The notes under the pieces: model-generated
Seen by the model: only the letters and a program-made list of their open reading frames with translations
Told to the model about the DNA's origin: nothing
The model's database searches: none
Shown: positions 15,767 through 49,596 of the stretch, in pieces
Numbering within the stretch: the stretch's first letter is position 1
Layout of the letters: each line of letters opens with the position of its first letter
Source: Desulfobacterales bacterium
GTDB lineage: Bacteria; Desulfobacterota; UBA8473
Assembly (NCBI GenBank): GCA_016209225.1
Contig: JACQWO010000025.1
Span: 14,548-78,547, forward strand
Reading direction: 5' to 3'
Length of the DNA: 64,000 nucleotides
Position numbers and translations under genes: made by a program

Positions 15767-16056
15767 TATTCCCTGTGCTCTGCATCACATCATGTGGTGC
15801 GGGGGGATCAATAAAGCCAACATCTTTTCATAAATCCGGCCTTCTCTCCATGAACCGAATTCCTTCCTGCTTCCCACCTGCCCGGCGCTCGGTGCGGACA
15901 GGTGTCCCCAAACCCTTGTCATGACGGGTGTCGAAAACGGCGGCTTGTTTGGCTCGCTTCTTGCGTTAAATACTTTCCGCGCCTCCGTGCCTCTCTCTGT
16001 GGAAAGAGCCGATGCCTTTCCACTGCCTGAGAATTGCGGCGCAAAAGGAGTTTCCT

Positions 16057-16851
16057 ATGTGGAAAGGTCTGATGACCTCAGTACTGCTTGCTTTTATCTT
16101 CCTCGCCCTTCCCCCTGCGCAAGGGGCGATGCAGCAAGTGACGGCGAATAGTGGACGGTACAAAGTCCCGATTCTACTCTATCACCGCTTCGGACCCGCT
16201 GTGGCTGACGGGATGACCTTGACCACGCAGGTGTTCGCGTCCCATCTGGAATACCTCGCTAAAAACGGCTACACCATTATCCCTCTGAGGAAACTGATTG
16301 ATTTCTATCTCAGGAAAGTCCCTGATCTCCCTCCCAAATCAGTGGTGATCGTTGTTGACGACGCTCACAAATCGGTCTATACCGATATGTTGCCGCTGGT
16401 CAGGAAATATTCCATTCCGGTCACGCTCTTCATCTACCCGTCGGCGATCTCGAACGCGACCTACGCCATGACCTGGGATGAGTTGAGAGCGTTGAAGAAG
16501 ACCGGATTCTTCGATTTTCAGTCGCACACCTATTGGCACCCAAACTTTCTGAAGGAGCGCCGAAAGCTGGGGCCGGCGGATTTTGAAAAGTTCGTGGATA
16601 CGCAGATGAAAAAACCACTCATCAAGATCGAGAAGGAACTGGGCATCAGACCCGACATGCTCGCCTGGCCCTTCGGCATCTATGACGACTATCTCATCGG
16701 AAAGGCCAGGGAGGCGGGATATATCGCCGCCTTCACCATCGAACGCCGGCGCGTGTGCAACCGCGACGGCCTTCTGAAGCTCCCGCGCTACCTCTTGATC
16801 AATGCGGACACGGGGAAAAAATTCGAGAACATTCTCGCAGGGAAAGGATAA
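16057..16851 (+). CDS. Polysaccharide deacetylase (NodB-homology, PgaB/IcaB-like), secreted
   Basis: Signal peptide MWKGLMTSVLLAFIFLALPPAQG. IVVDDAHKSVY and WPFG are NodB-homology motifs. Confidence 0.8.
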   Translation: MWKGLMTSVLLAFIFLALPPAQGAMQQVTANSGRYKVPILLYHRFGPAVADGMTLTTQVFASHLEYLAKNGYTIIPLRKLIDFYLRKVPDLPPKSVVIVVDDAHKSVYTDMLPLVRKYSIPVTLFIYPSAISNATYAMTWDELRALKKTGFFDFQSHTYWHPNFLKERRKLGPADFEKFVDTQMKKPLIKIEKELGIRPDMLAWPFGIYDDYLIGKAREAGYIAAFTIERRRVCNRDGLLKLPRYLLINADTGKKFENILAGKG

Positions 16852-16858
16852 TTGCAAC

Positions 16859-18178
16859 ATGAAACTTCATAATCACCGGGCAGCCATGTTTCTTGTATTT
16901 CTAGGCTTTTTGTTTGCCGTCCCGTTCCCGGCCTTTGCGGACGGATATGCCACGGGAAGGGTGGTCGATTTCGAGACGAAAAGACCGATCGCTGGGGCAA
17001 TCTTGACACTCCCGAACGAGGTGGTCCGCACGGATGAACAGGGCATGTTCACCATGAAATCCCCTGCGGCAAAGGTCGGCGTGCGGGCATGCGGGTATCG
17101 ACGGGGAGAGGTCACGCTTCCCGCTCTTGCACCGAAGAGCCCCTTGCAGATCGCTCTCCTGGCATTCACTCCCAAGGCACTCTATCTCACCTATTACGGG
17201 ATCGGGGACAGGAAACTGAGAAACTCGGCGCTCAAGCTCATCGACGAGACGGAGCTCAATGCGCTTGTGATCGATGTGAAGGGCGACAGGGGCGTGGTCA
17301 CCTATAAGACGGAAGTCCCTTTCGCTAATCAGATCGGCGCGCAGAAGCTGATCATCGTGAAGGACATAAGAGAACTGATCCGTTCCCTGAGAGAGAGGGG
17401 GGTTTACACCATCGCCCGGATCGTCGTCTTCAAGGACAATGTGCTTGGAACGGCGCGTCCCGACCTTACCATCCGGACCCAGGACGGAAGTGTCTGGCGC
17501 GACCGGGAAAATCTCGTCTGGGTTGATCCTTCGAAACAGGAAGTCTGGGAGTACAACATCAGCCTCGCGGTAGAGGCCGCCAGAAACGGTTTCGACGAAA
17601 TCCAGTTCGACTATGTGAGATTCCCGGACAGGAAGGGATTGAAATTCGCGGTACAGAACTCTGAAGAGAACAGGGTGAAGTACATATCAGGTTTCCTCAA
17701 GGAAGCAAAAAGGCGGCTTGCCCCCTACAATGTTTTTCTCGCCGCCGATATCTTCGGGTATGTGTCATGGAACCTCGACGACACCCAAATCGGGCAGAGG
17801 CTCGATGCGGTCGAGCCGCATGTCGATTACATCTCTCTCATGCTCTACCCATCGGGGTTCCAGTTCGGGATCCCCGGTTACCGGAATCCCTTGGCTCATC
17901 CCTACGAAATCGTCTCGCTTTCGCTGAAGAAGGCACAGGAAAGGACTGCTATTCCAGCGGTCCGTTTTAGGCCGTGGCTGCAAGCCTTCAGGGATTATGC
18001 CTTTGATCGGAGGCATTTCACGGGAACCGAGATCAAAATGCAGATAAATGCCTCCAAGGACTTCGGTTCCGGAGGATGGATGCTCTGGAATCCGCGGAAC
18101 GTCTATCTCGCCGACGGACTGAAGCCGCGTGAGAAGGTCATGCGAATGGGGGCCAGGATTCATGATCCTCAGGGGTAA
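16859..18178 (+). CDS. Secreted putative glycoside hydrolase (DUF4015/GHL-type TIM barrel)
   Basis: Signal peptide followed by ALYLTYYGIGDRKL...ALVIDVKGDRG...DEIQFDYVRFP, which is typical of the DUF4015 (YngK-like) family. Confidence 0.5.
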   Translation: MKLHNHRAAMFLVFLGFLFAVPFPAFADGYATGRVVDFETKRPIAGAILTLPNEVVRTDEQGMFTMKSPAAKVGVRACGYRRGEVTLPALAPKSPLQIALLAFTPKALYLTYYGIGDRKLRNSALKLIDETELNALVIDVKGDRGVVTYKTEVPFANQIGAQKLIIVKDIRELIRSLRERGVYTIARIVVFKDNVLGTARPDLTIRTQDGSVWRDRENLVWVDPSKQEVWEYNISLAVEAARNGFDEIQFDYVRFPDRKGLKFAVQNSEENRVKYISGFLKEAKRRLAPYNVFLAADIFGYVSWNLDDTQIGQRLDAVEPHVDYISLMLYPSGFQFGIPGYRNPLAHPYEIVSLSLKKAQERTAIPAVRFRPWLQAFRDYAFDRRHFTGTEIKMQINASKDFGSGGWMLWNPRNVYLADGLKPREKVMRMGARIHDPQG

Positions 18179-18182
18179 GGCA

Positions 18183-20573
18183 ATGCAGTGCCCGGCGAAA
18201 CCGCTCCATTCTGTGCTCCTGTCTGTGCTGGTCGTGCTTGCGTTCCTCCTGTGCGGGGCGGCCTCCCAGCCGATCTATAAACCCCTCTCTTTACCCTCCC
18301 TGAGCGGGGAACAGCTTACGGGTCTCGACTCCCTCGTGGAAACCGCGATCAGGGAAGGAAAAACCCCGGGCGCCGTTGTCCTTATCGGCAACCGGGAGGA
18401 AATCCTTTACTCCCGCGCCTTAGGTTTCCGGTCACTTGATCCGGAGAAGGTAGCCATGAGCGAGGACACCATTTTCGATCTTGCCTCGCTTACCAAGGTG
18501 ATTGCTACCTCGACCGCGGTCATGCAACTAGCCGAGAAAGGAATCCTCAATATTGACGCTCCGGCAGCGAGGTACTGGCCCGCCTTCGGTAAGAACGGCA
18601 AGAAGCGGATCACGATTCGCCAGCTCCTTACCCATTATTCCGGTCTCCGGGCCAACCTGAAGCTGAAACCGGGCTGGTCCGGATATGAAGCCGCCATGAG
18701 GAAAATCATAGCGGAAAAGCCCTTGCGTCCTCCTGGATCGGGTTTTATCTACAGCGATATGAATTTCGAGGCCTTGGGAGAGATCGTACGCCATGTATCG
18801 GGATTGCCGCTCGATCAGTACTGCGCGCGGCATATCTTCACGCCGCTCGGGATGAAGGAAACGGGATTTAAGATTTCTGCCGACCTCAGGAACCGCATCG
18901 CACCCACGGAGTATCGGAAAAACAGGCTTATCTGTGGAGAGGCACACGATCCCGTATGTTACTTAATGGGAGGGATCGCCGGGCATGCCGGCCTGTTCTC
19001 CAGCGCCGCCGATCTCTCGATCTTCGCGCGTATGCTCCTGCAGGGAGGCGAATACGGAGGTGCCAGAATTCTCTCCCCCCATACCATCGAGACGATGACC
19101 ATCCCCCAGTCTCCGGGAGTCAGGAACGCACGGGGGCTGGGATGGAATATCGAGGCGCCCTTTGCCTCGAACAGGAACGAGCTTCCCTCGGCGGGCGCGT
19201 TCGGACATCTGGGGCACACCGGGACCTCGCTCTGGATTGATCCGGTGACGGGAGTCTACGTGATTTTGCTCACCAACCGGGTACATCCCGACGGCAAGGG
19301 GGACGTGAAGGAGCTCAGGGTGCAGATCAGAGGCCTGATCTCCAGTGCCCTCGGGCCGCTCTCGGAGACGCAGATCCTTGCCAAAAGACCTACCCTTTCC
19401 CGATACTTCGAAAAGATTGGTCACGGGACCTCCGGCCGGCGGGCAGAGATGGTTGCTACGGGTATCGATGTCCTCAAAGAGAGCGGATTTCCCCTCTTGA
19501 AGGGAAAACGTATCGGGCTCATCACGAACCACACGGGTCTTGATTCCTCAGGGACCCGCACGCTCGACCTGCTGCGCAGGGCAAAAGGGATAAGACTAGC
19601 GGCAGTCTTCAGTCCTGAGCACGGCCTGTACGGAGATGCCGACGCAAAGATTGCCTCGCAGCGGGATCCGGCAACGAACCTCACTGTCTACAGTCTTTAC
19701 GGAGACCAGCGGCGGCCCACGCCGAAAATGTTCGCGGGGCTAGACGCCATTGTCTTTGATATTCAGGATGTGGGGGTCCGCTTCTACACCTATATCACCA
19801 CCATGGGATATGCGTTGGAAGCCGCGGCCAAGGCGCGGATTCCTTTCTATGTCCTCGACCGGCCCAACCCCCTTACCGCCATCCGGGTACAGGGGCCGGT
19901 GATGGACAGGGAGATGAAGTCCTTTACCGGATATTTTCCCATGCCGGTGCGCCACGGTATGACCGTAGGAGAGCTGGCAGGACTCTTCAACGGCGAGTAC
20001 GATATTGGGGCGGAGCTGCATGTCGTGAAGATGAAGGGATACCGCCGGGATGCCTGGTTTGACGAGACGGGACTGATGTGGGTAAACCCTTCGCCCAACC
20101 TTAGGAGTATCACGGAAGCCGCTCTCTATCCCGGGGTCGCCATGGTAGAGGGCGCGAATGTGAGCGTCGGCCGGGGGACCAGCACCCCCTTCGAGCTTTT
20201 CGGCGCGCCATGGGTCCGCGGACGGGAGCTTGCGGATTACCTCAATCTCCGGAAAATTGAGGGCGTCGAGTTTCTTCCCGTCGAATTCACACCCGAGAGT
20301 TCCCTCTACAAAGGAAGTACCTGCCGCGGCACGCGCATCCTCCTGAAAGATCGCGGCACACTGGACTCTGGGCTTCTCGGGATCGAGATCATAAGCGCGC
20401 TTTACCGGCTCTTTCCGCAGGATTTCAAGATCGACGAGACGCTCGCCTCGATAGGCTCGCAGCAGATTCTGGAGGCAATCAAGGACGGAGTGAATCCGCG
20501 GACGATTGCGCTCCTGTGGAAGGAGCCGCTCAAACATTTCCTCGGGCTGAGGGAAAAGTACCTGCTTTATTGA
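18183..20573 (+). CDS. Serine hydrolase (beta-lactamase/PBP4-like fold) fused to DUF1343 (NamZ-like exo-beta-N-acetylmuramidase) domain
   Basis: Signal peptide, then the SxxK motif ASLTKVIATS and the YSDMNF region. The C-terminal about 400 aa carry the conserved DUF1343 sequence (GLITNHTGLD, VFDIQDVGVRFYTY, GEYDIG). Start set at 18183 to avoid overlap. Confidence 0.7.
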   Translation: MQCPAKPLHSVLLSVLVVLAFLLCGAASQPIYKPLSLPSLSGEQLTGLDSLVETAIREGKTPGAVVLIGNREEILYSRALGFRSLDPEKVAMSEDTIFDLASLTKVIATSTAVMQLAEKGILNIDAPAARYWPAFGKNGKKRITIRQLLTHYSGLRANLKLKPGWSGYEAAMRKIIAEKPLRPPGSGFIYSDMNFEALGEIVRHVSGLPLDQYCARHIFTPLGMKETGFKISADLRNRIAPTEYRKNRLICGEAHDPVCYLMGGIAGHAGLFSSAADLSIFARMLLQGGEYGGARILSPHTIETMTIPQSPGVRNARGLGWNIEAPFASNRNELPSAGAFGHLGHTGTSLWIDPVTGVYVILLTNRVHPDGKGDVKELRVQIRGLISSALGPLSETQILAKRPTLSRYFEKIGHGTSGRRAEMVATGIDVLKESGFPLLKGKRIGLITNHTGLDSSGTRTLDLLRRAKGIRLAAVFSPEHGLYGDADAKIASQRDPATNLTVYSLYGDQRRPTPKMFAGLDAIVFDIQDVGVRFYTYITTMGYALEAAAKARIPFYVLDRPNPLTAIRVQGPVMDREMKSFTGYFPMPVRHGMTVGELAGLFNGEYDIGAELHVVKMKGYRRDAWFDETGLMWVNPSPNLRSITEAALYPGVAMVEGANVSVGRGTSTPFELFGAPWVRGRELADYLNLRKIEGVEFLPVEFTPESSLYKGSTCRGTRILLKDRGTLDSGLLGIEIISALYRLFPQDFKIDETLASIGSQQILEAIKDGVNPRTIALLWKEPLKHFLGLREKYLLY

Positions 20574-20731
20574 ACCCGGCAGCCACCGGTTCCTTCATCG
20601 GCGAGATACTGCACCAGTGCTTTTTCTTTTGTCCTTGCAATTTATGGCTCAGGGTGTATACTTATCCAAAAGAGGAAGGCAGGTTTATAATGCCATGACC
20701 TTTTTAAATTTACAGTTAATGAAAGTGAAAA

Positions 20732-21154
20732 ATGAAAAGTCTTAGACGTGGTGGTAAGTTTGGCAAAAAGGATTCAAATATGTCCGATAGAGGGGTTTCA
20801 AAAAGGCCTTCTCGGGGAGGTTTTAGCAGGGGCGGAGGAAGGGATTCGGAAAGGCCTGCTTTTGACAAGCAGATGTACAAGGCTACCTGCCAAAAATGCG
20901 GGGACAACTGCGAGGTTCCGTTTAAGCCTACCGGAGGTAGACCCATCTACTGCCGGGATTGTTTTAGGACAATGGAAGGTTCCGAATCGCCAAGACCAAA
21001 ACAGTTTGGAAAACGCGAATATCCCAGATCAAGGCGTCCCGACAATTTTAAGAAAAGTGAATACTCCGAATCAGCAAGGCCCGATCAATTCAAGAGGGAA
21101 CTGGACCAGATAAACTCAAAGCTGGATAAGATTTTAAGAGCACTGGAAGATTAA
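20732..21154 (+). CDS. Arg/Gly-rich zinc-ribbon protein (CxxC-x16-CxxC) with a C-terminal coiled coil
   Basis: RGGFSRGGGRDSERPAFD...CQKCGDNCEVPFKPTGGRPIYCRDCF, then low-complexity RP/K-rich repeats. Confidence 0.5.
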   Translation: MKSLRRGGKFGKKDSNMSDRGVSKRPSRGGFSRGGGRDSERPAFDKQMYKATCQKCGDNCEVPFKPTGGRPIYCRDCFRTMEGSESPRPKQFGKREYPRSRRPDNFKKSEYSESARPDQFKRELDQINSKLDKILRALED

Positions 21155-21322
21155 TAAATCTTATTTTATGACCAAAAAGAAAAGCTTGACGGCTTGTTGC
21201 CCAAACCCATTCATAGCCATATATCTGTTGCACCAGACAGGCCAGAACCGCTCGCTGATGAGTAGCAGGTTGGGCCTAAAATATATTTAATTAATGCCCA
21301 AAATAACATATAATACACATAC

Positions 21323-21571
21323 ATGGTTAAAACCGGATACAAATTCACCGAATACTTTGAGAAAGAGGTTCTGAGAAAACGGCCGTATATAAAAAAAGAA
21401 TGGTGTGTCAGCGTGATAGAACGACCGCTCAGAGTTGAGCCGCAAGAACATAACCGCTTCCGGTTCTGGGGTGTGATTCCAGAACTTGAGGGCCGAATAA
21501 TACGAGTTATTACGTTAAGCGACAAGAAAACCATTCACAATGCATTTCCAGATAGGGGGTTCAAATCATGA
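21323..21571 (+). CDS. DUF4258-family small toxin-like protein
   Basis: 82 aa, overlapping the DUF2283 gene by 4 nt. The family assignment rests on size and gene arrangement. Confidence 0.45.
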   Translation: MVKTGYKFTEYFEKEVLRKRPYIKKEWCVSVIERPLRVEPQEHNRFRFWGVIPELEGRIIRVITLSDKKTIHNAFPDRGFKS

Positions 21572-21783
21572 AATTAAACTACTATCCGGAGACCGATTCT
21601 CTATATATAGACCTATCAGAAAAATCAAGTGTAGAGAGTCGCGAGATTTCCGAAGGTGTTGTCCTTGACTATGATGCAGAAGGTATTCTGGTGGGTATCG
21701 ATATCGACAATGCCAGCACAAAAGTCCAGCTAAAAGAGTTAAGCCTTCGAAAACTGCCAGCAGATATAAAGGCAGTGGCATAG
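21568..21783 (+). CDS. DUF2283-family protein (antitoxin-like partner)
   Basis: MKLNYYPETDSLYIDL...GVVLDYDAEGILVGIDIDNAS is the canonical DUF2283 signature. Confidence 0.6.
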   Translation: MKLNYYPETDSLYIDLSEKSSVESREISEGVVLDYDAEGILVGIDIDNASTKVQLKELSLRKLPADIKAVA

Positions 21784-21829
21784 CCAATCAATCCAGCGAA
21801 TCGGCCTTAAATCCGGCCTCCCGCTGATT

Positions 21830-21925
21830 GCTTCGTTTCCCCCCTCGCTCCGCTCGGGGGGAATGCGGCGCTGAGCGGTTGTGCCTGCCCTCCGCTTCGC
21901 TCCGGGAGAACCAGGCACAGGAGAC
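21830..21925 (-). repeat. REP-like structured element, 5'-truncated copy in inverted orientation
   Basis: The reverse complement equals the right two-thirds of the 125-bp unit: GTCTCCTGTGCCTGGTTCTCCCGGAGCGAAGCGGAGGGCAGGCACAACCGCTCAGCGCCGCATTCCCCCCGAGCGGAGCGAGGGGGGAA. Confidence 0.6.
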
Positions 21926-21929
21926 AAAG

Positions 21930-22304
21930 ATGAAAGTTTCGGAACTGTTCGATCCTGCCATCAAGGGAAAGAAATCGGGAACGGAACGGCATCACCTTTT
22001 CCCCAAGAATTATCTGAAGAAAATGAATATAACCGAAATCCGCGATACGAATCAGATCGCCAACTATGCCTTAGTCGAATGGTCCGATAATATCGAAATC
22101 TCCGACAGCTCGCCTGAAGAGTACTTGCCGCAGTATATTGACCGCTTCAGCCTGGATGAACTGAAAGACATGTACTACTGGCACGCTCTGTCGGATGGTT
22201 GGGAAAACATGGCCTATGAGAAATTTCTTAAAACCCGTCGAAATGGGATGGCAAAGGTAATTCGTGACGGATTCCAGAAGTTATGCGACTTGTCCGATCA
22301 ATGA
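21930..22304 (+). CDS. Stand-alone DUF1524-like (GmrSD C-terminal HNH-type nuclease) domain protein, probably a truncated remnant
   Basis: ERHHLFPKNYL...IANYALVEWSDNIEIS resembles the DUF1524 H..P and N motifs. No DUF262 half is present. The RBS AGGAGA and ATG sit immediately after the REP-like fragment. Confidence 0.4.
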   Translation: MKVSELFDPAIKGKKSGTERHHLFPKNYLKKMNITEIRDTNQIANYALVEWSDNIEISDSSPEEYLPQYIDRFSLDELKDMYYWHALSDGWENMAYEKFLKTRRNGMAKVIRDGFQKLCDLSDQ

Positions 22305-22419
22305 GGAGGTAAAACATGGAAACCAAGACGTACTTGGGGCCGTTGTTCCTATTTGATCTTTTTCTTGTGTGAGAGGTGGCATATACGAACGCAGAGATCG
22401 GAGAGATTTTTGGAAATAA

Positions 22420-22824
22420 TCAAAACTTTGTAAAGGCTCCTGATATGCTTATCTCTTTCTGTATTCCGTATTTCTCCATCCTCCGACGGAGGCTGTTTCT
22501 GTTTATACCCAGTAATGTAGCTGCTTTAACCTGATTCCCTTTTGTTTTTTCCAGTGCCTTTATTACCAGTATCTTTTCCAGATAAGAGAACGTGTCTAAA
22601 TCTTCTTTTGTCGAGAGGGAAGATGCCACTTTGAGAAGTCTATCTAAAATCCCATTCAACCCATAGTCCAGATTCTCCTCTTCCCTTAAGGAATAAACTC
22701 CGTTCGTATCCTCCTCAAAAGAGATGTCTTCAGGGATGATAATATTACTCTTACATCTAATAATAGCCTTCTTGACAACATTCTCAAGCTCTCTGACATT
22801 GCCGGGCCAATGATAACCCATCAA
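22420..22824 (-). pseudogene. Sigma54-dependent activator, C-terminal fragment (134 aa): end of the AAA+ domain plus the Fis-type HTH
   Basis: About 80% identical to the C-terminus of the intact regulator gene 27840-29285 (YHWPGNVRELENVVKKAIIRCKS...LLGINRNSLRRRMEKYG). There is no receiver or Walker region, so I call it a remnant. Confidence 0.6.
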
Positions 22825-22893
22825 CAGTATTTGGGGTCAGGCTTCGGTAATTAGGTATTGACATTCTTATCGTTCTTTGATAGACAGTTATTT

Positions 22894-23868
22894 ATGGCTC
22901 GTAGACCTCGAATTCATTTTCCAGGAGCTTTGTATCATGTCATCACTAGAGGGAATCGAAGACAGGGGATATTCCTTGATGAAAAAGATTTGGAGAAGTT
23001 CCTTGCCTATATTGTGGATTATAAGTCCAGACACTCTTTCCATCTTTATGCTTACGCTTTGATGAAAAATCATCTCCACCTTCTTGTGGAGGTTGAAGAG
23101 ACACCTTTGAGCAAAATCATGCAATCTCTCTTGTTTCGTTATACGCGTTATTTTAATAGGCGATATGGTGAGGTGGGGCATCTTTTTCAGGGACGATATA
23201 AGGCGATTGTGTGTGACAAGGATGCTTATCTTTTAGAATTGGTTCGCTATATTCATTTGAACCCCGTTCGGGCAAAAATTGTGAATATGCCTGAAGATTA
23301 TGGGTGGACTGGTCACCTCAGTTATTTGGGAAGAGGTAGGAATGATTTAATTGATGAGGGTTTTATGTTAGATCAATTGAGCAGGGACATATCTTTGGCG
23401 AGGCGGAGATACCGTCAATTTGTATGGGAAGGGATTGCAAGTGGGCACCAGGAGAAATACTACGAGGTCAAAGATCAGCGGTATCTTGGAGAGGACAGTT
23501 TCATTAATCAGATCGAAGTGGGAAGGAACAAGCCTGAAAGCTGGGTTTATGATGTTCCACTGGAAGCTATATCTCAGGAGGTGAGCAGAGTTACAGGGAT
23601 TACGGAAGAGAGGTTGTACTCTGGGACGAGAGATCGCGAAGGGGCGCGTGGGAGGGGCTTAGTGGCATACTTGGCCAAGACGGTATCGAATTATATGGTG
23701 AAAGATATAGCCAGCCATTTCAAGCGGAGTCCTGTTACTATAGGAGAGGCAATCATCAAGGTTGAAGATATTCTGAAGAGTGATAGTTCATTCGAGAAGG
23801 AGCTAACACGCATGGGGGAGAATCTGATCCAGGGGAGGAAGAGAAAATACCGTATTTCCGTTGCCTGA
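22894..23868 (+). CDS. IS200-like Y1 (HUH) transposase domain fused to a DnaA domain-IV-like HTH (second, low-GC copy)
   Basis: MARRPRIHFPGALYHVITRGNRRQ...YALMKNHLHLL...RYIHLNPVRA. The C-terminus LVAYLAKTVSNYMVKDIASHFKRSPVTIGEAIIKVEDIL resembles DnaA domain IV. The track ORF starts at a TTG at 22858. Confidence 0.7.
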   Translation: MARRPRIHFPGALYHVITRGNRRQGIFLDEKDLEKFLAYIVDYKSRHSFHLYAYALMKNHLHLLVEVEETPLSKIMQSLLFRYTRYFNRRYGEVGHLFQGRYKAIVCDKDAYLLELVRYIHLNPVRAKIVNMPEDYGWTGHLSYLGRGRNDLIDEGFMLDQLSRDISLARRRYRQFVWEGIASGHQEKYYEVKDQRYLGEDSFINQIEVGRNKPESWVYDVPLEAISQEVSRVTGITEERLYSGTRDREGARGRGLVAYLAKTVSNYMVKDIASHFKRSPVTIGEAIIKVEDILKSDSSFEKELTRMGENLIQGRKRKYRISVA

Positions 23869-23932
23869 CCCCATTCTTCTGGACCCCATTCTTCTGCATT
23901 CTTCCTTGACCCCATTCTTCCTAAATTTTTCA
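23869..23932 (+). repeat. Three direct repeats of GACCCCATTCTTC immediately 3' of the Y1/DnaA-IV gene
   Basis: tgACCCCATTCTTCtggACCCCATTCTTCtgcattcttccttgACCCCATTCTTCc. Confidence 0.5.
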
Positions 23933-24029
23933 ATATGTTATGATTCCTCTTTGGCTAACTTTAATAAAGTCCAAAAATCCTTTAAAAATGTGGGGTTACG
24001 TTATTACTTAACGTAGTAGTATTAGTTAA

Positions 24030-24233
24030 TTGCCCGATTCCAGTAAAATGACAAGAAGAGAAACAAAGAATATAACAGGTCTTACCAGGATTGAAGGCAT
24101 TCCCTATCACGATGCGTGGGTAGGTTTTATCTGTCTTTCTTGCGGCTTACTCAATAACATTCGAATCGGGCTTCAGCTTTTAGACCCTAAAACCACATAC
24201 GAAACTGCTGAAATCATACTGGAAGCAATGTAA
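24030..24233 (+). CDS. Small ORF with a CxxC pair; possibly the frameshifted N-terminal part of the HNH endonuclease
   Basis: ...GFICLSCGLL... The +1 frame stays open across the ORF's stop codon and encodes further CxxC pairs (CNACGRILP...CRSCKG) that lead into the HNH ORF. Confidence 0.25.
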   Translation: MPDSSKMTRRETKNITGLTRIEGIPYHDAWVGFICLSCGLLNNIRIGLQLLDPKTTYETAEIILEAM

Positions 24234-24249
24234 TGCTTGCGGCCGAATT

Positions 24250-24879
24250 TTGCCCTTTGCTGCATTTAGCAAACATTCAGGGTGGGGGCCACTTGAACGG
24301 CAAATGGAATGCAGGAGCTGTAAAGGCGCAATAAATGCAGTGCTGAATCCGAAACGAACCAGAGAGCAATTACACGAATCATCGGTCAGGAGAAGGATTG
24401 CGGATTTATTGCTGGAAGGGGAAAACGAAACAGTTGATATAGCGGATTTGTTTAAAAGATTTGGCAGTCGTTGCTTTAAGACAAAGCAACTGCTTGATAT
24501 TAAGAAAAGAGATTCTTGGGCGATTGACCATATCTTGCCTTCAAGATGGCTCTATCCCTTGACAAAAGAAAATGCAGCATTGTTATCAACTGAAGCGAAC
24601 AACAATAAACGAGATAAATGGCCAAGTGAGTTTTATACCAACAACGAATTGATTGAACTTGCCAAAATAACTGGAGCAGATTTAGGATTGTTATCCAGCA
24701 AAACCCCTATCATCAATACCGATATCAATGTCGGTAAATGTGTTGAACGGTATTTGCAAGTCAGGGAAAGGTCTCATTTGCCAAAAAGAATTAATGAGTT
24801 GAAGAAAATTCTGAAAGATTACAATCTTGTTGATAAACTCTCTCGAAGGAATAAAAAATTGTTGGGATTTACTAAGTAA
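24250..24879 (+). CDS. HNH endonuclease (putative restriction nuclease), probably disrupted at its 5' end
   Basis: WAIDHILPSRW...STEANNNKRDKWP is an HNH motif. Zinc-ribbon CxxC pairs lie upstream. There is no in-frame ATG until residue 18; the track start is a TTG. It converges on the methyltransferase gene with a 3-nt gap. Confidence 0.5.
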   Translation: MPFAAFSKHSGWGPLERQMECRSCKGAINAVLNPKRTREQLHESSVRRRIADLLLEGENETVDIADLFKRFGSRCFKTKQLLDIKKRDSWAIDHILPSRWLYPLTKENAALLSTEANNNKRDKWPSEFYTNNELIELAKITGADLGLLSSKTPIINTDINVGKCVERYLQVRERSHLPKRINELKKILKDYNLVDKLSRRNKKLLGFTK

Positions 24880-24882
24880 ATT

Positions 24883-27543
24883 TTACTGCAAAACTAAATA
24901 CTGGTGTGAAGTAACGGTTCCCTTATCACGTATTCCGTGCGATTCGCAATGCTCCACATTTTCCACAAACAAATCAACGATATTGAACCAGCGTTTGCTT
25001 ACCTTTTTTAATTCTTCTGCCATATCGCATTTAATGCTTTTTCCTAAATGCAAAACGCAAACGCCGCCTCGTTTCAGCCGCTCTCTGGATTGTCTGAAGA
25101 TACCTTCATAAATTGCAAAGTCCTTTTTCTGCTTTTCCTCAATATATGAGTTTATCTGATATTTAAAATCATTTTCTGACCATCCGCTAAACCAAATTCT
25201 TATCCAGTTTGCAAGATAAAACCTTGTGCTGTCAAAGAATGGAGGAGAAGTAATAACCGCGTCAAGATTATTTATCTCTTGCGGCCAGATAGATGTTGAA
25301 TCTTGATTATAGATTTTCCCTGGAATAAAATTCAAAGGCAATTCCACTTTCAATGTTCTTTCAACTTTGTCGGTGAGATTTTTGATTAAGTTTTTATAAA
25401 CAAATTCTCCTTGCGGTGCATAAGGGACAATCGGGTGCGACCGTCTGCTCAAGGCATACGGCCTGTTGCCGTGTAGAATATGAAGCAGAGAAGATATTAC
25501 AAGCATTTGGCTTGGATTTTCAGGATAATTAAGTTTTAAAAACCTCCTTGCCAGCAAAATTTCTTTAAGTGTTTTTTCCTCATAATATTCAGCAAGTGTT
25601 TTGTTAAAGCCAAAATGCTTTGCTTCATTCAATTCTTCTTTTGTGCATTTATTTTGCTCTATGAATTCTGCCATCTGCTGAATGTAATTTAAACACTCGT
25701 TTTTTTTATGTATGCTAACCTTAGCAGTTGAAATATAGTAAGCGGGTATGCTGATGTCAAACCCATAAGATCTCCTTCCGTTTAATGCTGCCTCAAAAGG
25801 AACCGTCCCTACTCCCGAAAATGGGTCAAGAACACTGCCGTTTTCCGGGACAAATGTTTTGACAAGGTGATGGGCGATAGATGCCTTTAATTTCCCTTGA
25901 TAAGAGCAAAGGGAATGAAGCGGATTGCCCCAGTTTCTTTTGGAGTATGGGAGTTTTTGGTAGGGCAGGTTATCTTTAAAATGCTCCCAATTCCCCGGAT
26001 TGAAGATTTTTATCTTCTGTTTTTCCTCTGGCATGTATGTTGATTTATTAAATTCTAACACCAGCAGCGTTTGGCTCAATACTTCCTTATTTCTTGACCT
26101 CCGTTTTCTTAAAAGTTTTTTCTCCTTTAATTCATATCCAAGTGCAGCCAATATTTCAATCAGAATATCATCGGTCTTAATGTGAACATCAGCAAAAATA
26201 GAGTCGCCAATATCAATCAAAATTTTTGCTCGGTCTCTTAAGTGTTCTCGCAGATTGGAAAAAATGGCATACATTTCTTCAAAATAACTTTTCGCCATTA
26301 TCGGAATACGTTGGTCATACGATTTTTTATACAGTTTTACAATGGTGTCCTTTAGTAATTTATTTTTAATCATTATGTCCGTTCCGCTGCTGCCCGAAGC
26401 TGCTTTTTTCACATCGTTAATTCCGCTGGTAAGTGCTTGGTCGCGGAAAAGTCGCAAGTCGTCTCCAGACTGGATGTATCGCAGAAACCACAACTCCAGT
26501 TTGGTGTTTCTAAAATAATTTGTCCCGTTAAGATAGGGCGGGCTTGTAATAATAGCGTCAATATTTAAATCATTTACCATATCAATATATTTTGCATTGG
26601 AAAGAATCATCTCCGGTGCCGCCTTTAACACAAATTCCAAATTGAGAATGTCATTGGCTATCTCTTTCAATTTATTTGGTAAAAATTTTCCCAATTCAAC
26701 CTTTGCTTTTTCCAGTTCATTTTTGGTCTTAAACCTAACATCACCCGCCTTTTTCAGAAATGAAACAGGAATTAAGGCAGCCAAAATAGCGATGGTAATA
26801 GTATCCGCCAAAAGTTCATCTTCCAATTTTACAATGTCAATAAATGAGCGTAGACGGAGAATCCGGGTAAAAACATCGTCCTCAAAATATCTGCTGTTGC
26901 CGAAAATGAGACCGTAACTTTTTTTCAAATACTTGTCTTCCTCAAAGTTTTCAATCTTCTCAACGAGTTGCCCTGCAATTTGGGTTACCTTCTCTGCTAA
27001 CTGTTTTCGTATTGTAAAACTTGATTTCAGAATTTTGATTTTTGTATGTATAAGAAATTGAAGAAGTGGATTGATTTCTGAATAAACAGTCTTTATATTT
27101 AATTGGGAGGCGGCAAAAATGGTGGTTCCGGTTCCAATAAATGGATCGTAAATGCAAGCTGCTTTTTTACAATAATTGTTAATAAGAGATTTTACAAACT
27201 CGGGAGAATAACCTTCAATGAAAGGATACCATCTCTGAAAAGGAATTGACTTGCTGCCAATAAAGGTTACATCACGGGGATTAATGATAGAAAATCCGTT
27301 AAGGTTCTTTTTGATTAAGCGTTTGACAACCTGGTTGAGCGACCTTTCCTCTTTCTCAGAAAACAGTGCTAATTGCTTATAACTTTTAATGCCGATTAAT
27401 TCTCTTAACTCCTCGCTGCTCAATTCTTTTATTTTCGTGTAATAGGGCGCTTCCGGCTCGTTGAATGCCAATGTGATTGATTTTTCTTTTGAGTCATCTG
27501 ACGGATAGTCGTCAAAGTAAATGGATTTGAAGTATTGTCCCAT
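24883..27543 (-). CDS. Tandem two-domain DNA methyltransferase (amino-MTase; two FxGxG ... SPP[YF] modules), Type IIS-like
   Basis: 886 aa. The first half carries DPFIGTGTT and ITSPPYLNGTNYF. The second half carries LDPFSGVGTV and ITSPPFFDST. The SPPY/SPPF catalytic motif is the N4-C/N6-A amino-methyltransferase type. Confidence 0.75.
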   Translation of the reverse strand: MGQYFKSIYFDDYPSDDSKEKSITLAFNEPEAPYYTKIKELSSEELRELIGIKSYKQLALFSEKEERSLNQVVKRLIKKNLNGFSIINPRDVTFIGSKSIPFQRWYPFIEGYSPEFVKSLINNYCKKAACIYDPFIGTGTTIFAASQLNIKTVYSEINPLLQFLIHTKIKILKSSFTIRKQLAEKVTQIAGQLVEKIENFEEDKYLKKSYGLIFGNSRYFEDDVFTRILRLRSFIDIVKLEDELLADTITIAILAALIPVSFLKKAGDVRFKTKNELEKAKVELGKFLPNKLKEIANDILNLEFVLKAAPEMILSNAKYIDMVNDLNIDAIITSPPYLNGTNYFRNTKLELWFLRYIQSGDDLRLFRDQALTSGINDVKKAASGSSGTDIMIKNKLLKDTIVKLYKKSYDQRIPIMAKSYFEEMYAIFSNLREHLRDRAKILIDIGDSIFADVHIKTDDILIEILAALGYELKEKKLLRKRRSRNKEVLSQTLLVLEFNKSTYMPEEKQKIKIFNPGNWEHFKDNLPYQKLPYSKRNWGNPLHSLCSYQGKLKASIAHHLVKTFVPENGSVLDPFSGVGTVPFEAALNGRRSYGFDISIPAYYISTAKVSIHKKNECLNYIQQMAEFIEQNKCTKEELNEAKHFGFNKTLAEYYEEKTLKEILLARRFLKLNYPENPSQMLVISSLLHILHGNRPYALSRRSHPIVPYAPQGEFVYKNLIKNLTDKVERTLKVELPLNFIPGKIYNQDSTSIWPQEINNLDAVITSPPFFDSTRFYLANWIRIWFSGWSENDFKYQINSYIEEKQKKDFAIYEGIFRQSRERLKRGGVCVLHLGKSIKCDMAEELKKVSKRWFNIVDLFVENVEHCESHGIRDKGTVTSHQYLVLQ

Positions 27544-27746
27544 AGAAGATTTTCTCTCTGTAATTATGAAAAAACTGATATATTATGATAGTTGTTTCAT
27601 AAAATTTTGTCAACAGTTTTTATTCTTATTCTTGGTGGTGAAAAAAATGGGGGGGTAGAGTGGGGGGTCGCATCTTAGAAAGTTTAGGGACGGTGTCCAA
27701 AATTATCACTTAACAAAACACTTAATTGAGATAAAAAGGTATTATT

Positions 27747-27839
27747 ATGCCCCGACAAGCAAGATTGGATGCGCAGGGAACCCTTCACCATGTGATGATC
27801 CGCGGTATTGAGAGAGGCACGATATTTTGTAATAAATAA
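27747..27839 (+). pseudogene. Y1/IS200-like transposase-like gene, N-terminal 30-aa remnant
   Basis: MPRQARLDAQGTLHHVMIRGIERGTIFCNK*. The first 20 aa are homologous to the N-terminus of the 14484 gene. The stop abuts the stop codon of the sigma54 regulator. Confidence 0.5.
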
Positions 27840-29285
27840 TCAAAACTTTGTGAAAGCTCCTAATATGCTTATCTCTTTCTGTACTCCGTATTTCTCCATC
27901 CTCCTACGGAGACTGTTCCTGTTTATACCCAAAAGCTTTGCTGCCTTCACCTGATTGCCTTTTGTTCTCATAAGCGCCTTTATTACAAGCATTTTCTCCA
28001 GAAATGAGAACACATCCTTATCCCCGGTTAGCGATAAGGGGATTTCTTCAAGAAGTCTATCTAAGATTCCATTCAACCCTGAAACCAGCCCCCCTTCTTT
28101 TTCCAGGGTATGAGCCCTATTTGTTTCCTCCTCAAAAGAGAGGTCTTCCTGGACAATGACTTCCGACTTACATCTAATAATAGCCTTCTTGACAACATTC
28201 TCAAGCTCTCTGACATTGCCGGGCCAATGATAACCCATCAATACCTTGATCGCCGATGGAGCAATATCTTTTATTTCTTTATTCAACTCCGGGCTTGACT
28301 TTTTTATGAAATACCTCACTAAATCCGGTATGTCGCCCTTCCTTTCCCTTAAGGGGGGGAGGTAAATAGAGACTACGTTCAAACGGTAATAGAGGTCTTC
28401 CCTGAACCTTCCCTCAGCGACTTCCTTTCTCAGATCCTTATTGGTGGCGGCTATTACCCTGATGTCAACCTTTATTGTTTCATTTCCTCCCAATCTTTCA
28501 AACTCCATCTCCTGTAATACACGAAGCATCTTGGCTTGAAGAAGAAGGGACATGTCCCCTATTTCATCCAAAAGTATGGTGCCCCCACTTAACTGTTCAA
28601 GCTTCCCGATCTTTCTTAGCCGGGCGTCGGTAAATGCCCCTTTTTCATAACCAAAAAGCTCCGACTCCAGTAGATTGTCGGGTATGGCAGCACAGTTTAT
28701 TGCCATGAAGGGTTTGTCCCTTCTTGTGCTGTGTTTATATATAGCCCTGGCAACCAGCTCTTTTCCAGTGCCACTTTCTCCAGTTAAAAGAACCGTTATA
28801 TCTTTCCCGGCCACCTGCCCTATGTACTTATATACCTTCTGCATTTCAGGCGAGTTTCCAACCATGATGTCCCCGTTTAGTTCCCCCTCTTGGGAAGGGG
28901 ACAGGGCAACCTTTCTCTTCATCATCTCTGTTACGGATAAGGCGCTGGATATGGTTGCCTTCATCCAATCGATATCAAAGGGTTTCAGGGTGTAGTCGTA
29001 TGCTCCTAACCTCATGGCCTCCACCGCGGTTTCCATAGTTCCATACGCCGTCATAATTATAATATGGAGTTTGGGATCTATATTCTTGATTTTTCTCAGG
29101 GTGGTGATTCCATCTATCCCGGGCATCCTGATATCCATTATTACCAGGTCTGGGGTATCCCTGCTGATGATGTCTACGGCCTCTTCTCCGGACGAGGCAG
29201 AAAGGACAACATAACTCTTGGAGAAGACCTTTTTAAAAGAGTAATGAACATTGGGCTCATCATCAACGATCAGTATCTTTTTCAT
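27840..29285 (-). CDS. Sigma54-dependent Fis-family response regulator (NtrC-like)
   Basis: Receiver domain (DDEPNV...DLVIMDIRMPGIDG). AAA+ sigma54-interaction domain with Walker A GESGTGKE and a GAFTDA variant of GAFTGA. C-terminal Fis HTH. Confidence 0.85.
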   Translation of the reverse strand: MKKILIVDDEPNVHYSFKKVFSKSYVVLSASSGEEAVDIISRDTPDLVIMDIRMPGIDGITTLRKIKNIDPKLHIIIMTAYGTMETAVEAMRLGAYDYTLKPFDIDWMKATISSALSVTEMMKRKVALSPSQEGELNGDIMVGNSPEMQKVYKYIGQVAGKDITVLLTGESGTGKELVARAIYKHSTRRDKPFMAINCAAIPDNLLESELFGYEKGAFTDARLRKIGKLEQLSGGTILLDEIGDMSLLLQAKMLRVLQEMEFERLGGNETIKVDIRVIAATNKDLRKEVAEGRFREDLYYRLNVVSIYLPPLRERKGDIPDLVRYFIKKSSPELNKEIKDIAPSAIKVLMGYHWPGNVRELENVVKKAIIRCKSEVIVQEDLSFEEETNRAHTLEKEGGLVSGLNGILDRLLEEIPLSLTGDKDVFSFLEKMLVIKALMRTKGNQVKAAKLLGINRNSLRRRMEKYGVQKEISILGAFTKF

Positions 29286-44688: not shown

Positions 44689-44800
44689 AATGCGGCGCTG
44701 AGCGGTGTCCCGAAGGGACATCCGTCTCCTGTGCCTGGTTCTCCCTGAGAGAAGCGGAGGGCAGGCACAACCGCTCAGCGCCGCATTCCCCCTGAGGGTT
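44689..44800 (+). repeat. REP-like structured element, copy A
   Basis: AATGCGGCGCTGAGCGGTGTCCCGAAGGGACATCCGTCTCCTGTGCCTGGTTCTCCC...GAGGGCAGGCACAACCGCTCAGCGCCGCATT, with a variant 3' hairpin. Confidence 0.6.
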
Positions 44801-46253: not shown

Positions 46254-46380
46254 AACGCGGCGCTGAGCGGTGTCCCGAAGGGACATCCGTCTTCCTGTGC
46301 CTGGTTCTCCCGGAGCGAAGCGGAGGGCAGGCACAACCGCTCAGCGCCGCGTTCCCCCTGAGCGAAGCGAAGGGGGAATG
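46254..46380 (+). repeat. REP-like structured element, copy B
   Basis: AACGCGGCGCTGAGCGGTGTCCCGAAGGGACATCCGTCTTCCTGTGCCTGG...CAGGCACAACCGCTCAGCGCCGCGTTCCCCCTGAGCGAAGCGAAGGGGGAA. Confidence 0.65.
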
Positions 46381-48058: not shown

Positions 48059-48184
48059 AATGCGGCGCTGAGCGGTGTCCCGAAGGGACATCCGTCTCCT
48101 GTGCCTGGTTCTCCCGGAGCGAAGCGGAGGGCAGGCACAACCGCTCAGCGCCGCATTCCCCCCGAGCGGAGCGAGGGGGGAATG
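48059..48184 (+). repeat. REP-like structured element, copy C (most complete consensus-like copy)
   Basis: AATGCGGCGCTGAGCGGTGTCCCGAAGGGACATCCGTCTCCTGTGCCTGGTTCTCCCGGAGCGAAGCGGAGGGCAGGCACAACCGCTCAGCGCCGCATTCCCCCCGAGCGGAGCGAGGGGGGAATG. The outer 18-bp inverted repeat is perfect. Inner hairpins: GTCCCgaaGGGAC and TGTGCCTG...CAGGCACA. A 3' hairpin follows: CCCCCC...GGGGGG. Confidence 0.65.
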
Positions 48185-49465: not shown

Positions 49466-49596
49466 AATGCGGCAGTTGAGCAGTGCCCGAAGGGCATCTG
49501 TCTCGAACTCCTGGTTCTCCCCGCAGCGGAGCGAAGGGGAAATCAGGAGTTCGCTGCTCAACTGCCGCATTCTCCCCGAGCGAAGCGAGGGGAGAA
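49466..49596 (+). repeat. REP-like structured element, copy D (divergent, with compensatory stem changes), plus an extra GC hairpin to about 49650
   Basis: AATGCGGCAGTTGAGCAGTGCCCGAAGGGCATCTGTCTCGAACTCCTGG...CAGGAGTTCGCTGCTCAACTGCCGCATTCTCCCCGAGCGAAGCGAGGGGAGAA. Every stem retains complementarity despite substitutions. Confidence 0.55.

Follow-up and report, generated by a model that had tools for sequence, protein, structure and literature searches.

The locus described here lies in a stretch of 64,000 nt (the window) of contig JACQWO010000025.1 from a Desulfobacterales bacterium, the source being a metagenome-assembled genome (MAG). It consists of the gene for an NtrC-family sigma54-dependent response regulator, a second and incomplete copy of the 3' end of that gene, and, between the two, a restriction-modification (RM) cassette and an element of the TIRtron type with its Y1 gene. 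The slot that holds them is limited by the two-component regulator gene on one side and by a conserved zinc-finger gene (20732-21154) on the other. When read in the sense of the regulator gene, the order is as follows: the 5' part of the regulator, its tail (of the type termed B1), 128 nt of native flank, around 90 nt, and the RM cassette. These are followed by a spacer, the TIRtron with its left end last, the relic of a regulator tail of a second type (B2), and a short flank termed E. The coordinates are collected in Table 1; the contigs used for comparison are labelled L001 and so on.

Table 1. Features of the slot beside the regulator gene, with positions in the window.
Feature	Position	Strand	Basis or remark
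NtrC-family sigma54-dependent response regulator, intact, 481 aa	27840..29285	-	Pfam Response_reg, Sigma54_activat, AAA_lid_14, HTH_8; NCBIfam ntrC-like
Right repeat copy (B1 type): last 134 codons of the live regulator and ~7 nt past the stop	27834..28241	-	Repeat search and alignment
Left repeat copy (B2 type): 134-codon pseudogene relic of a diverged regulator allele, truncated at LMGYHW	22414..22824	-	
75-nt tract, 100% identical to 28167-28241	22750..22824	-	Truncated end of the relic
Native flank downstream of the regulator gene, 128 nt	27712..27839	-	90% identity to L095 6533-6661
Flank E, directly downstream of the relic	22329..22409	.	86% identity to L001 13304-13384 (81 nt), after queE
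TIRtron, ~1.05 kb	22825..23873	+	TIR-L 22832-22859, Y1 (TIRYT) gene 22894-23868, TIR-R 23846-23873
Three tandem GACCCCATTCTTC units at the TIRtron right end	23867..23920	+	
RM cassette, extent of its nucleotide alignment with cassettes of unrelated genomes	24042..27619	.	blastn vs L081-L085, 76-90% identity
HNH restriction-nuclease pseudogene, codons 1-55 and 105-325 retained	24048..24879	+	tblastn, global alignment
DNA methyltransferase, intact, 886 aa, two tandem alpha-type modules	24883..27543	-	Pfam N6_N4_Mtase, E 7e-23
Sigma70-like promoter TTGACA-17-TATCAT, upstream of the methyltransferase and inside the cassette	27585..27613	-	Consensus scan, 11/12; pattern match only

The 3' end of the regulator gene is present twice. 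The repeat search identified two ungapped blocks, 22414-22591 against 27834-28011 (84% identity) and 22629-22824 against 28046-28241 (80% identity), which are set apart by a 3-nt indel. The initial annotation of this DNA had reported a repeat of about 470 bp with about 80% identity; the repeat and its identity hold, whereas its total length by alignment is only about 410 bp. The similarity begins around 7-10 nt past the stop codon and ceases abruptly at 22824/28241, and it is at 22824 that the left copy adjoins the TIRtron. As the similarity stops exactly there, the 5' stub of the Y1 gene that had been included in the repeat is not part of it. Both copies end in AFTKF*, and what had been quoted as shared junction sequences are simply the last codons of the regulator (KF*) and some 14 nt of its 3' untranslated region. 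It had also been proposed that one copy is the 3' end of an intact sigma54 activator gene and the other a gene fragment, and this is borne out by the Pfam domains and the alignment. The left copy holds only the end of AAA_lid_14 and HTH_8, and is annotated in the source MAG as a hypothetical protein of 133 aa.

The manner in which the two copies differ is informative about their history. The differences number 24, 20 and 42 at the first, second and third codon positions, respectively, corresponding to a dN of 0.17, a dS of 0.69 and a dN/dS of 0.24 (NG86). As they lie mostly at third positions, both copies have long evolved as functional genes, and a fresh duplication followed by decay is not what is observed. 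An in-place tandem duplication of the regulator 3' end, in which the spare copy decayed neutrally and foreign DNA entered between the two later, could explain their direct orientation, their common reading-frame limits and the AFTKF* with which both terminate. It is nevertheless very improbable, and was rejected on the codon-position pattern, the divergence being concentrated at synonymous sites. Further, the diagnostic sites of the relic are common to the live regulator gene of L001, a Deltaproteobacteria MAG, and B2 is thus an allele of the population rather than a decaying duplicate. The two copies are therefore two old alleles of the regulator 3' end and not the product of an insertion. 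When a full-length donor of the relic was searched for, nothing above 75% identity was found except the ORF (open reading frame) of the source MAG itself.

The truncated end of the relic departs from this general divergence. Its last 75 nt show no difference from the live copy, where about 12 are expected if twelve further pairs of homologues are used to set the relative rate of the segment (P ~6e-6, or 0.009 at the most conservative rate). Such identity beyond expectation means that the copies have recently exchanged sequence, and the comparison indicates a recent gene-conversion or crossover tract.

The element that adjoins the relic carries a gene of the Y1 superfamily. The Y1_Tnp domain of its product is recognized by Pfam (E 3e-16), while the NCBIfam model REP_Tyr_transpos falls narrowly short of its cut-off (77.7 bits against 80), and a Bac_DnaA_C helix-turn-helix is present at aa 236-301 (Pfam, E 4.5e-9), so that its earlier designation as a Y1/DnaA-IV gene holds good. 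The HUH motif is represented by HLH at aa 60-62, and the catalytic tyrosine is found in VRYIHLNP. The gene is enclosed by terminal inverted repeats (TIRs) with arms of 28 nt, which are complementary at 23/28 positions and have a perfect 11-nt tip, TGGGGTCAGGC, that fits the published GGGGWSAS consensus. TIRtrons and their TIRYT proteins are known as subclass 2.1 within the Y1 HUH superfamily; the proteins end in a DnaA-like helix-turn-helix, and GGGGWSAS is found in the TIRs (PMC3733652, PMC6006769). Their mobility was not demonstrated in Di Nocera et al. 2013 (PMC3733652) or in Quentin et al. 2018 (PMC6006769). The window copy resembles the published ones in its RAYT-like Y1 domain with HUH and tyrosine, in its C-terminal Bac_DnaA_C domain, in its inverted ends (TGGGGTCAG in the window) and in the overlap of the right-hand repeat with the 3' end of the gene. 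Nothing essential differs, although the window copy adjoins a truncated gene.

Copies of this TIRtron with the same ends are found between unrelated genes in L086 (96% identity), L087, L089 and L090 (86%), and the comparison with these four places its limits at about 22825/22832 and 23873. More than 7,800 homologues of the Y1 gene are known, many of the close ones lying on contigs of just 1.0-1.5 kb. The Y1 gene is a separate, self-contained element and not part of an RM island. At its right end, each tandem GACCCCATTCTTC unit is made up of the last 7 nt of the TIRtron and 6 nt of flank; two such units are present in L086 (1280-1310), and in L087 the corresponding place is taken by another short tandem, TAATTTTC. 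These right-end tandems may have been left by recurrent cutting and rejoining, or by slippage. The motifs GACCCCATTCTTC and GCCTGACCCCA have no further exact copies in the window. A second truncated gene is found at the left end of this element in L086, where only about 38 codons of a 3-hydroxyacyl-CoA dehydrogenase gene remain before it breaks off at the TIRtron copy (131-274); the dehydrogenase gene is not resumed in the roughly 130 nt past the opposite end of that TIRtron.

The RM cassette is about 3.6 kb long and, at 36-39%, is lower in GC than the window (about 45%). A convergent pair, consisting of a nuclease of 323-325 aa and a methyltransferase of 886 aa, is kept in L081 and in L082-L084, which have quite different neighbourhoods, and L085 has an intact nuclease gene on a contig that ends early. 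In these other cassettes, the nuclease is intact, and neither the regulator-tail repeats nor the Y1 gene accompanies them. The insertion or capture of an RM cassette had been suggested for the window, and the horizontal acquisition, at least, is supported by the low GC content and by the identity to cassettes in unrelated genomes. Judged from composition and homology, the cassette is a horizontally acquired, compact two-gene Type II RM system.

Its nuclease gene is dead in the window. The ORFs 24030-24233 and 24250-24879 had been taken as two pieces of one gene, and the alignment to homologues agrees with this. When the intact homologue P0001 was used in tblastn, its residues 1-55 (96% identical) and 104-325 (91%) were found in different frames, and the global nucleotide alignment to the intact genes of L081, L082 and L085 has a single gap of 146 nt. 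The lesion is thus an internal deletion, and not the one-base frameshift which had been assumed and which re-sequencing of 24180-24260 might remove. The deletion of 146 bp lies at 24212/24213; it shifts the frame and causes the loss of codons 56-104, whereby the first zinc ribbon is deprived of its second CxxC. The pseudogene has no further stops or lesions that disrupt the frame, and its inactivation therefore looks recent.

The intact form of the nuclease is widespread. A conceptual fusion of the two ORFs retrieves 734 homologues, nearly all of 323-325 aa and with 97-98% query coverage, from many phyla, one of them assigned to an archaeon. Among 46 homologues, D209, H210, N224 and N233 of the intact protein are invariant. 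In sequence searches, the intact protein gives weak matches to Cas9 HNH domains and to HNH_4. The AlphaFold (AF2) model of an intact homologue (pLDDT 77.6) matches only Cas9 HNH domains in the PDB, with a probability of 1.0 and a target TM of about 0.46-0.53. The proposal of a probable HNH nuclease is in line with all of these, and the architecture is that of two N-terminal zinc ribbons followed by a Cas9-like HNH domain.

The methyltransferase, in contrast to the decayed nuclease, persists at full length, as had been noticed from the start, and aligns gap-free to its homologues over 886 residues with 77% identity. Module 1 has motif I (FIGTGT) near aa 137 and motif IV (SPPY) near aa 335; in module 2, the corresponding FSGVGT and SPPF are found near aa 565 and 762. 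The two halves are homologues of each other and align in register over the span between these motifs (aa 117-353 against 557-785, E 1e-11), which bears out the two FxGxG...SPP[YF] modules described earlier. Classification by profile models shows that each half fits stand-alone Type II methyltransferases. The PADLOC model MTase_II, which has 445 positions and describes a stand-alone Type II enzyme, covers aa 92-495 (E 5e-57), and other models cover aa 541-795. The exact-sequence look-up of this methyltransferase gave no other contig, and no solved structure is related to it by sequence.

With a promoter-like sequence of its own inside the cassette, the methyltransferase is probably self-promoted, and it is probably now solitary. 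The recognition site would be asymmetric, with one module acting on each of its strands, and the modified base would most likely be N4-methylcytosine (m4C). S/DPPY/F motifs are described as a hallmark of N4-cytosine methyltransferases (PMC6712171), and two methyltransferase activities are usual for asymmetric sites, a dual-methyltransferase precedent being HpyAV (PMC2816704). By analogy with these, the cassette may reasonably be taken as a putative Type IIS-like system.

The comparison with characterized systems shows both likeness and difference. Type IIS systems such as HpyAV/Hin4II (PMC2816704) share the architecture of an HNH nuclease gene beside a methyltransferase gene that fuses two complete domains. 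However, HpyAV fuses a C5 and an N6A domain, whereas both modules of the window methyltransferase are alpha-type SPP[YF] amino-methyltransferases. The RM genes of the window are, moreover, convergent, and the nuclease, dead in this copy, has the two N-terminal zinc ribbons and the Cas9-like HNH domain. M.DraR1 is an alpha-class N4-cytosine methyltransferase from plasmid CP1 of Deinococcus radiodurans (PMC6712171). It resembles the window enzyme in having FxGxG, a central target-recognition region and SPPY; in the window, motif I is followed by about 198 residues and then motif IV. However, M.DraR1 is a single module with the palindromic site CCGCGG and a GIY-YIG nuclease partner, while the window has two modules and an HNH nuclease. 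Module 1 (aa 90-470) is 24% identical to a site-specific methyltransferase annotated on pCP1, a protein that is not equated here with M.DraR1. The protein beside this pCP1 methyltransferase was considered as a nuclease counterpart and rejected, being unrelated to the window nuclease. The sequences thus compared describe a so far uncharacterised RM family of more than 700 members across phyla, in which a zinc-ribbon, Cas9-like-HNH nuclease would be paired with a double alpha-type, probably m4C, methyltransferase.

In relatives, the slot holds different contents. The regulator gene and about 8 kb upstream of it are 92-94% identical in L001, L095, L096 and L097, and the cassette is seen in none of these contigs. 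In L095, the regulator tail, AF[T/I]KF*, and the 128-nt flank are as in the window; an IS110-like transposase gene and the contig end then follow. The tail and this flank, being common to the two, are thus native. The IS110-like gene (L095 6662-6929, MSTFYYIGLDIHKR...) starts exactly where the homology to the window flank ends (27712), so that a third kind of mobile element uses the slot.

L001 and L096 have neither the cassette nor an empty site in the strict sense. In both (L001 11426-11473, L096 9427-9469), the regulator gene runs at codon 476 into 35 nt left over from a TIRtron left end, and from these it takes its ESQ* tail; queC-queD-queE then follow; no queCDE genes are present in the whole window. 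The regulator end beside this fusion is of the relic (B2) type in L001 and in L096. The fusions hint at rearrangements at the left end of the element. The opposite interpretation had been tried, with the ...GESQ* tail (L001, L002) as the ancestral C-terminus and 22825-22866 as its relic. It was reversed by the mapping of TIRtron ends in L086-L090, according to which 22825-22866 is the TIRtron left end and not a regulator relic. The GES* tail of L002 shares only about 8 nt with it, probably by coincidence. In L096, the slot ends at the zinc-finger gene, syntenic with 20620-21182 of the window.

The regulator 3' ends of the relatives are themselves mixed. When compared site by site, that of L001 is a mosaic of relic-like, live-copy-like and again relic-like sequence, and that of L096 matches L095 without a difference up to about the last 60 nt, where it turns to the relic type. 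Contig L097 stops exactly at the switch where L095 and L096 diverge, which fits co-existing haplotypes. These mosaic ends mean that two old types of tail allele circulate and recombine. The 128-nt flank accompanies B1 in the window and in L095, flank E accompanies B2 in the window and in L001, and it is in the window that both types occur in tandem.

Taken together, the region is likely to be a patchwork in a hypervariable slot beside the regulator gene, a recombination hotspot at which two haplotypes were joined, rather than a single mobile island bounded by repeats. The slot holds three independent parts, namely the RM cassette with its broken nuclease, the TIRtron, and the dead 134-codon relic of a regulator tail. 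A single island bracketed by its own repeats, as the initial annotation had it, does not agree with the occurrence elsewhere of the cassette without the repeats or the Y1 gene, and of the Y1 element alone. It could still be argued that the whole 5.4-kb segment was inserted as one island and that the direct repeats arose when it was inserted or captured, as happens with integrative elements that replace the 3' end of their target gene. As with such genomic islands, foreign DNA of low GC is flanked by direct repeats of a gene 3' end, the live gene is intact, a truncated 3' copy lies beyond the foreign DNA, and the 75-nt identical core sits at one repeat end like an att core. However, when the ORFs between the repeats were scanned with Pfam and NCBIfam profiles, neither an integrase nor a resolvase domain was found; a tyrosine or serine integrase is missing, and the Y1 HUH gene alone is recombinase-like. 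At other loci, the cassette and the Y1 element occur singly and with sharp boundaries of their own, the segment as a unit is present at no other locus, and the live tail with its 128-nt flank is native rather than borne by an element. The one-island explanation is thus distinctly unlikely, and in its integrase-type form it was rejected for the missing integrase and the separate occurrence of the components.

As to the origin of the patchwork, the most likely course would be that DNA of a B1-type strain, with the cassette and the TIRtron already downstream of the regulator, was joined by recombination to a B2-type chromosome. Two routes could give the observed order. The first is a single-crossover (Campbell-type) integration of a circular intermediate in the conserved 75-nt stretch, and the second is a homology-anchored illegitimate join at the TIRtron left end, followed by gene conversion. 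The two are indistinguishable, and we infer the mode of joining only in these general terms. With its 75 identical nucleotides, the tract offers sufficient length for RecA-type recombination, so the 5.4-kb segment can in principle loop out. RecA-mediated recombination between the copies would leave one regulator gene, chimeric but intact. It has also been considered that the TIRYT protein, by a break or strand transfer at the left end, mobilised the adjacent DNA (the cassette and the regulator tail), for example as a circle, which then entered the regulator of a sister strain by homologous recombination; this is quite improbable.

Several points weigh against the joining of two haplotypes as set out above. 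The simple Campbell model requires a circular donor closed exactly at the TIRtron end, and nothing shows that. There is no clear microhomology at the junction of the TIRtron left end with the relic. No relative shows the exact empty state or the exact donor state, and the order of events is therefore not reconstructable. L095, cut off by the IS110-type element and the contig end, is silent on the absence of the cassette. The role of the methyltransferase as a solitary enzyme is read from its sequence. Lastly, the phase of the two tails after the 75-nt tract depends on the assembler, the source being a MAG.

The last point leads to the possibility that haplotypes of a B1 and a B2 strain were stitched into one contig, and that the tandem arrangement exists in no single cell. 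The locus varies among related metagenomes, some of whose contigs are broken at it (L097, L098, L003), the window itself comes from a MAG, and an identical tract of 75 nt is long enough to confuse short k-mers. However, the junction of the TIRtron left end with the regulator fragment (22824/22825) lies in unique sequence, for which real reads are needed unless a read is itself chimeric, and this junction should thus be real. The path from the live gene to the B1 tail is confirmed by the relatives. At most, an alternative phasing would give a chimeric regulator and a 5.4-kb circle or tandem array, which is a recombination product of the same structure. An assembly artefact is, on balance, unlikely, and the recombined patchwork stays the preferred explanation.

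Other features of the window touch the slot less directly. Within it, two small overlapping ORFs at 21323-21783 (+) encode an 82-aa protein without a family match and a DUF2283 protein, and look like a toxin-antitoxin-type pair. Another gene relic of the slot, at 21927-22304 (+), is the C-terminal fragment (HHLFPKNYL...ANYALVEWSDN) of a defence-candidate protein of about 600 aa; it matches PADLOC HEC-05 at profile positions 485-592 of 600 (E 1e-5). The mechanical ORF 21828-22304 begins within a GC-rich repeat of about 89 nt, of which the window has five copies: 21837-21925 on the forward strand, and 48094-48182, 46293-46378, 44724-44796 and 49510-49596 on the reverse strand. This repeat contains two hairpins (TTCCCCCC...GGGGGGAA and GTGCCTG...CAGGCAC), and one pair of copies is 100% identical. 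It looks REP- or MITE-like, and no Rfam family matched it or anything else in the region. The stretch 16000-20500, which includes an ORF of 814 aa (18129-20573), is richer in GC (55-61%) than the remainder of the window (about 45%), and may be another acquired segment.

Each component of the locus belongs to a known kind, and the arrangement is that of an ordinary hypervariable slot. Only two points are mildly unusual, namely that breakpoints fall repeatedly at the TIRtron end and that an uncharacterised RM family is so widely spread. The value of the analysis is thus mainly corrective, in that an apparent repeat-bounded RM island resolves into three ordinary things in one slot. The locus is also a clear natural example of the decay of an RM system towards a solitary methyltransferase by a single recent lesion, and of two deeply diverged alleles of a regulator 3' end recombining within and between strains. 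Further, it exemplifies rearrangement breakpoints that coincide with the end of a TIRtron, a class without demonstrated mobility. If the TIRYT protein had indeed mobilised adjacent cargo, this locus and the fusions of the regulator to TIRtron ends in L001 and L096 would be natural evidence of active, cargo-moving TIRtrons. The widespread RM family, for its part, could on expression of its intact members yield a new Type II specificity.

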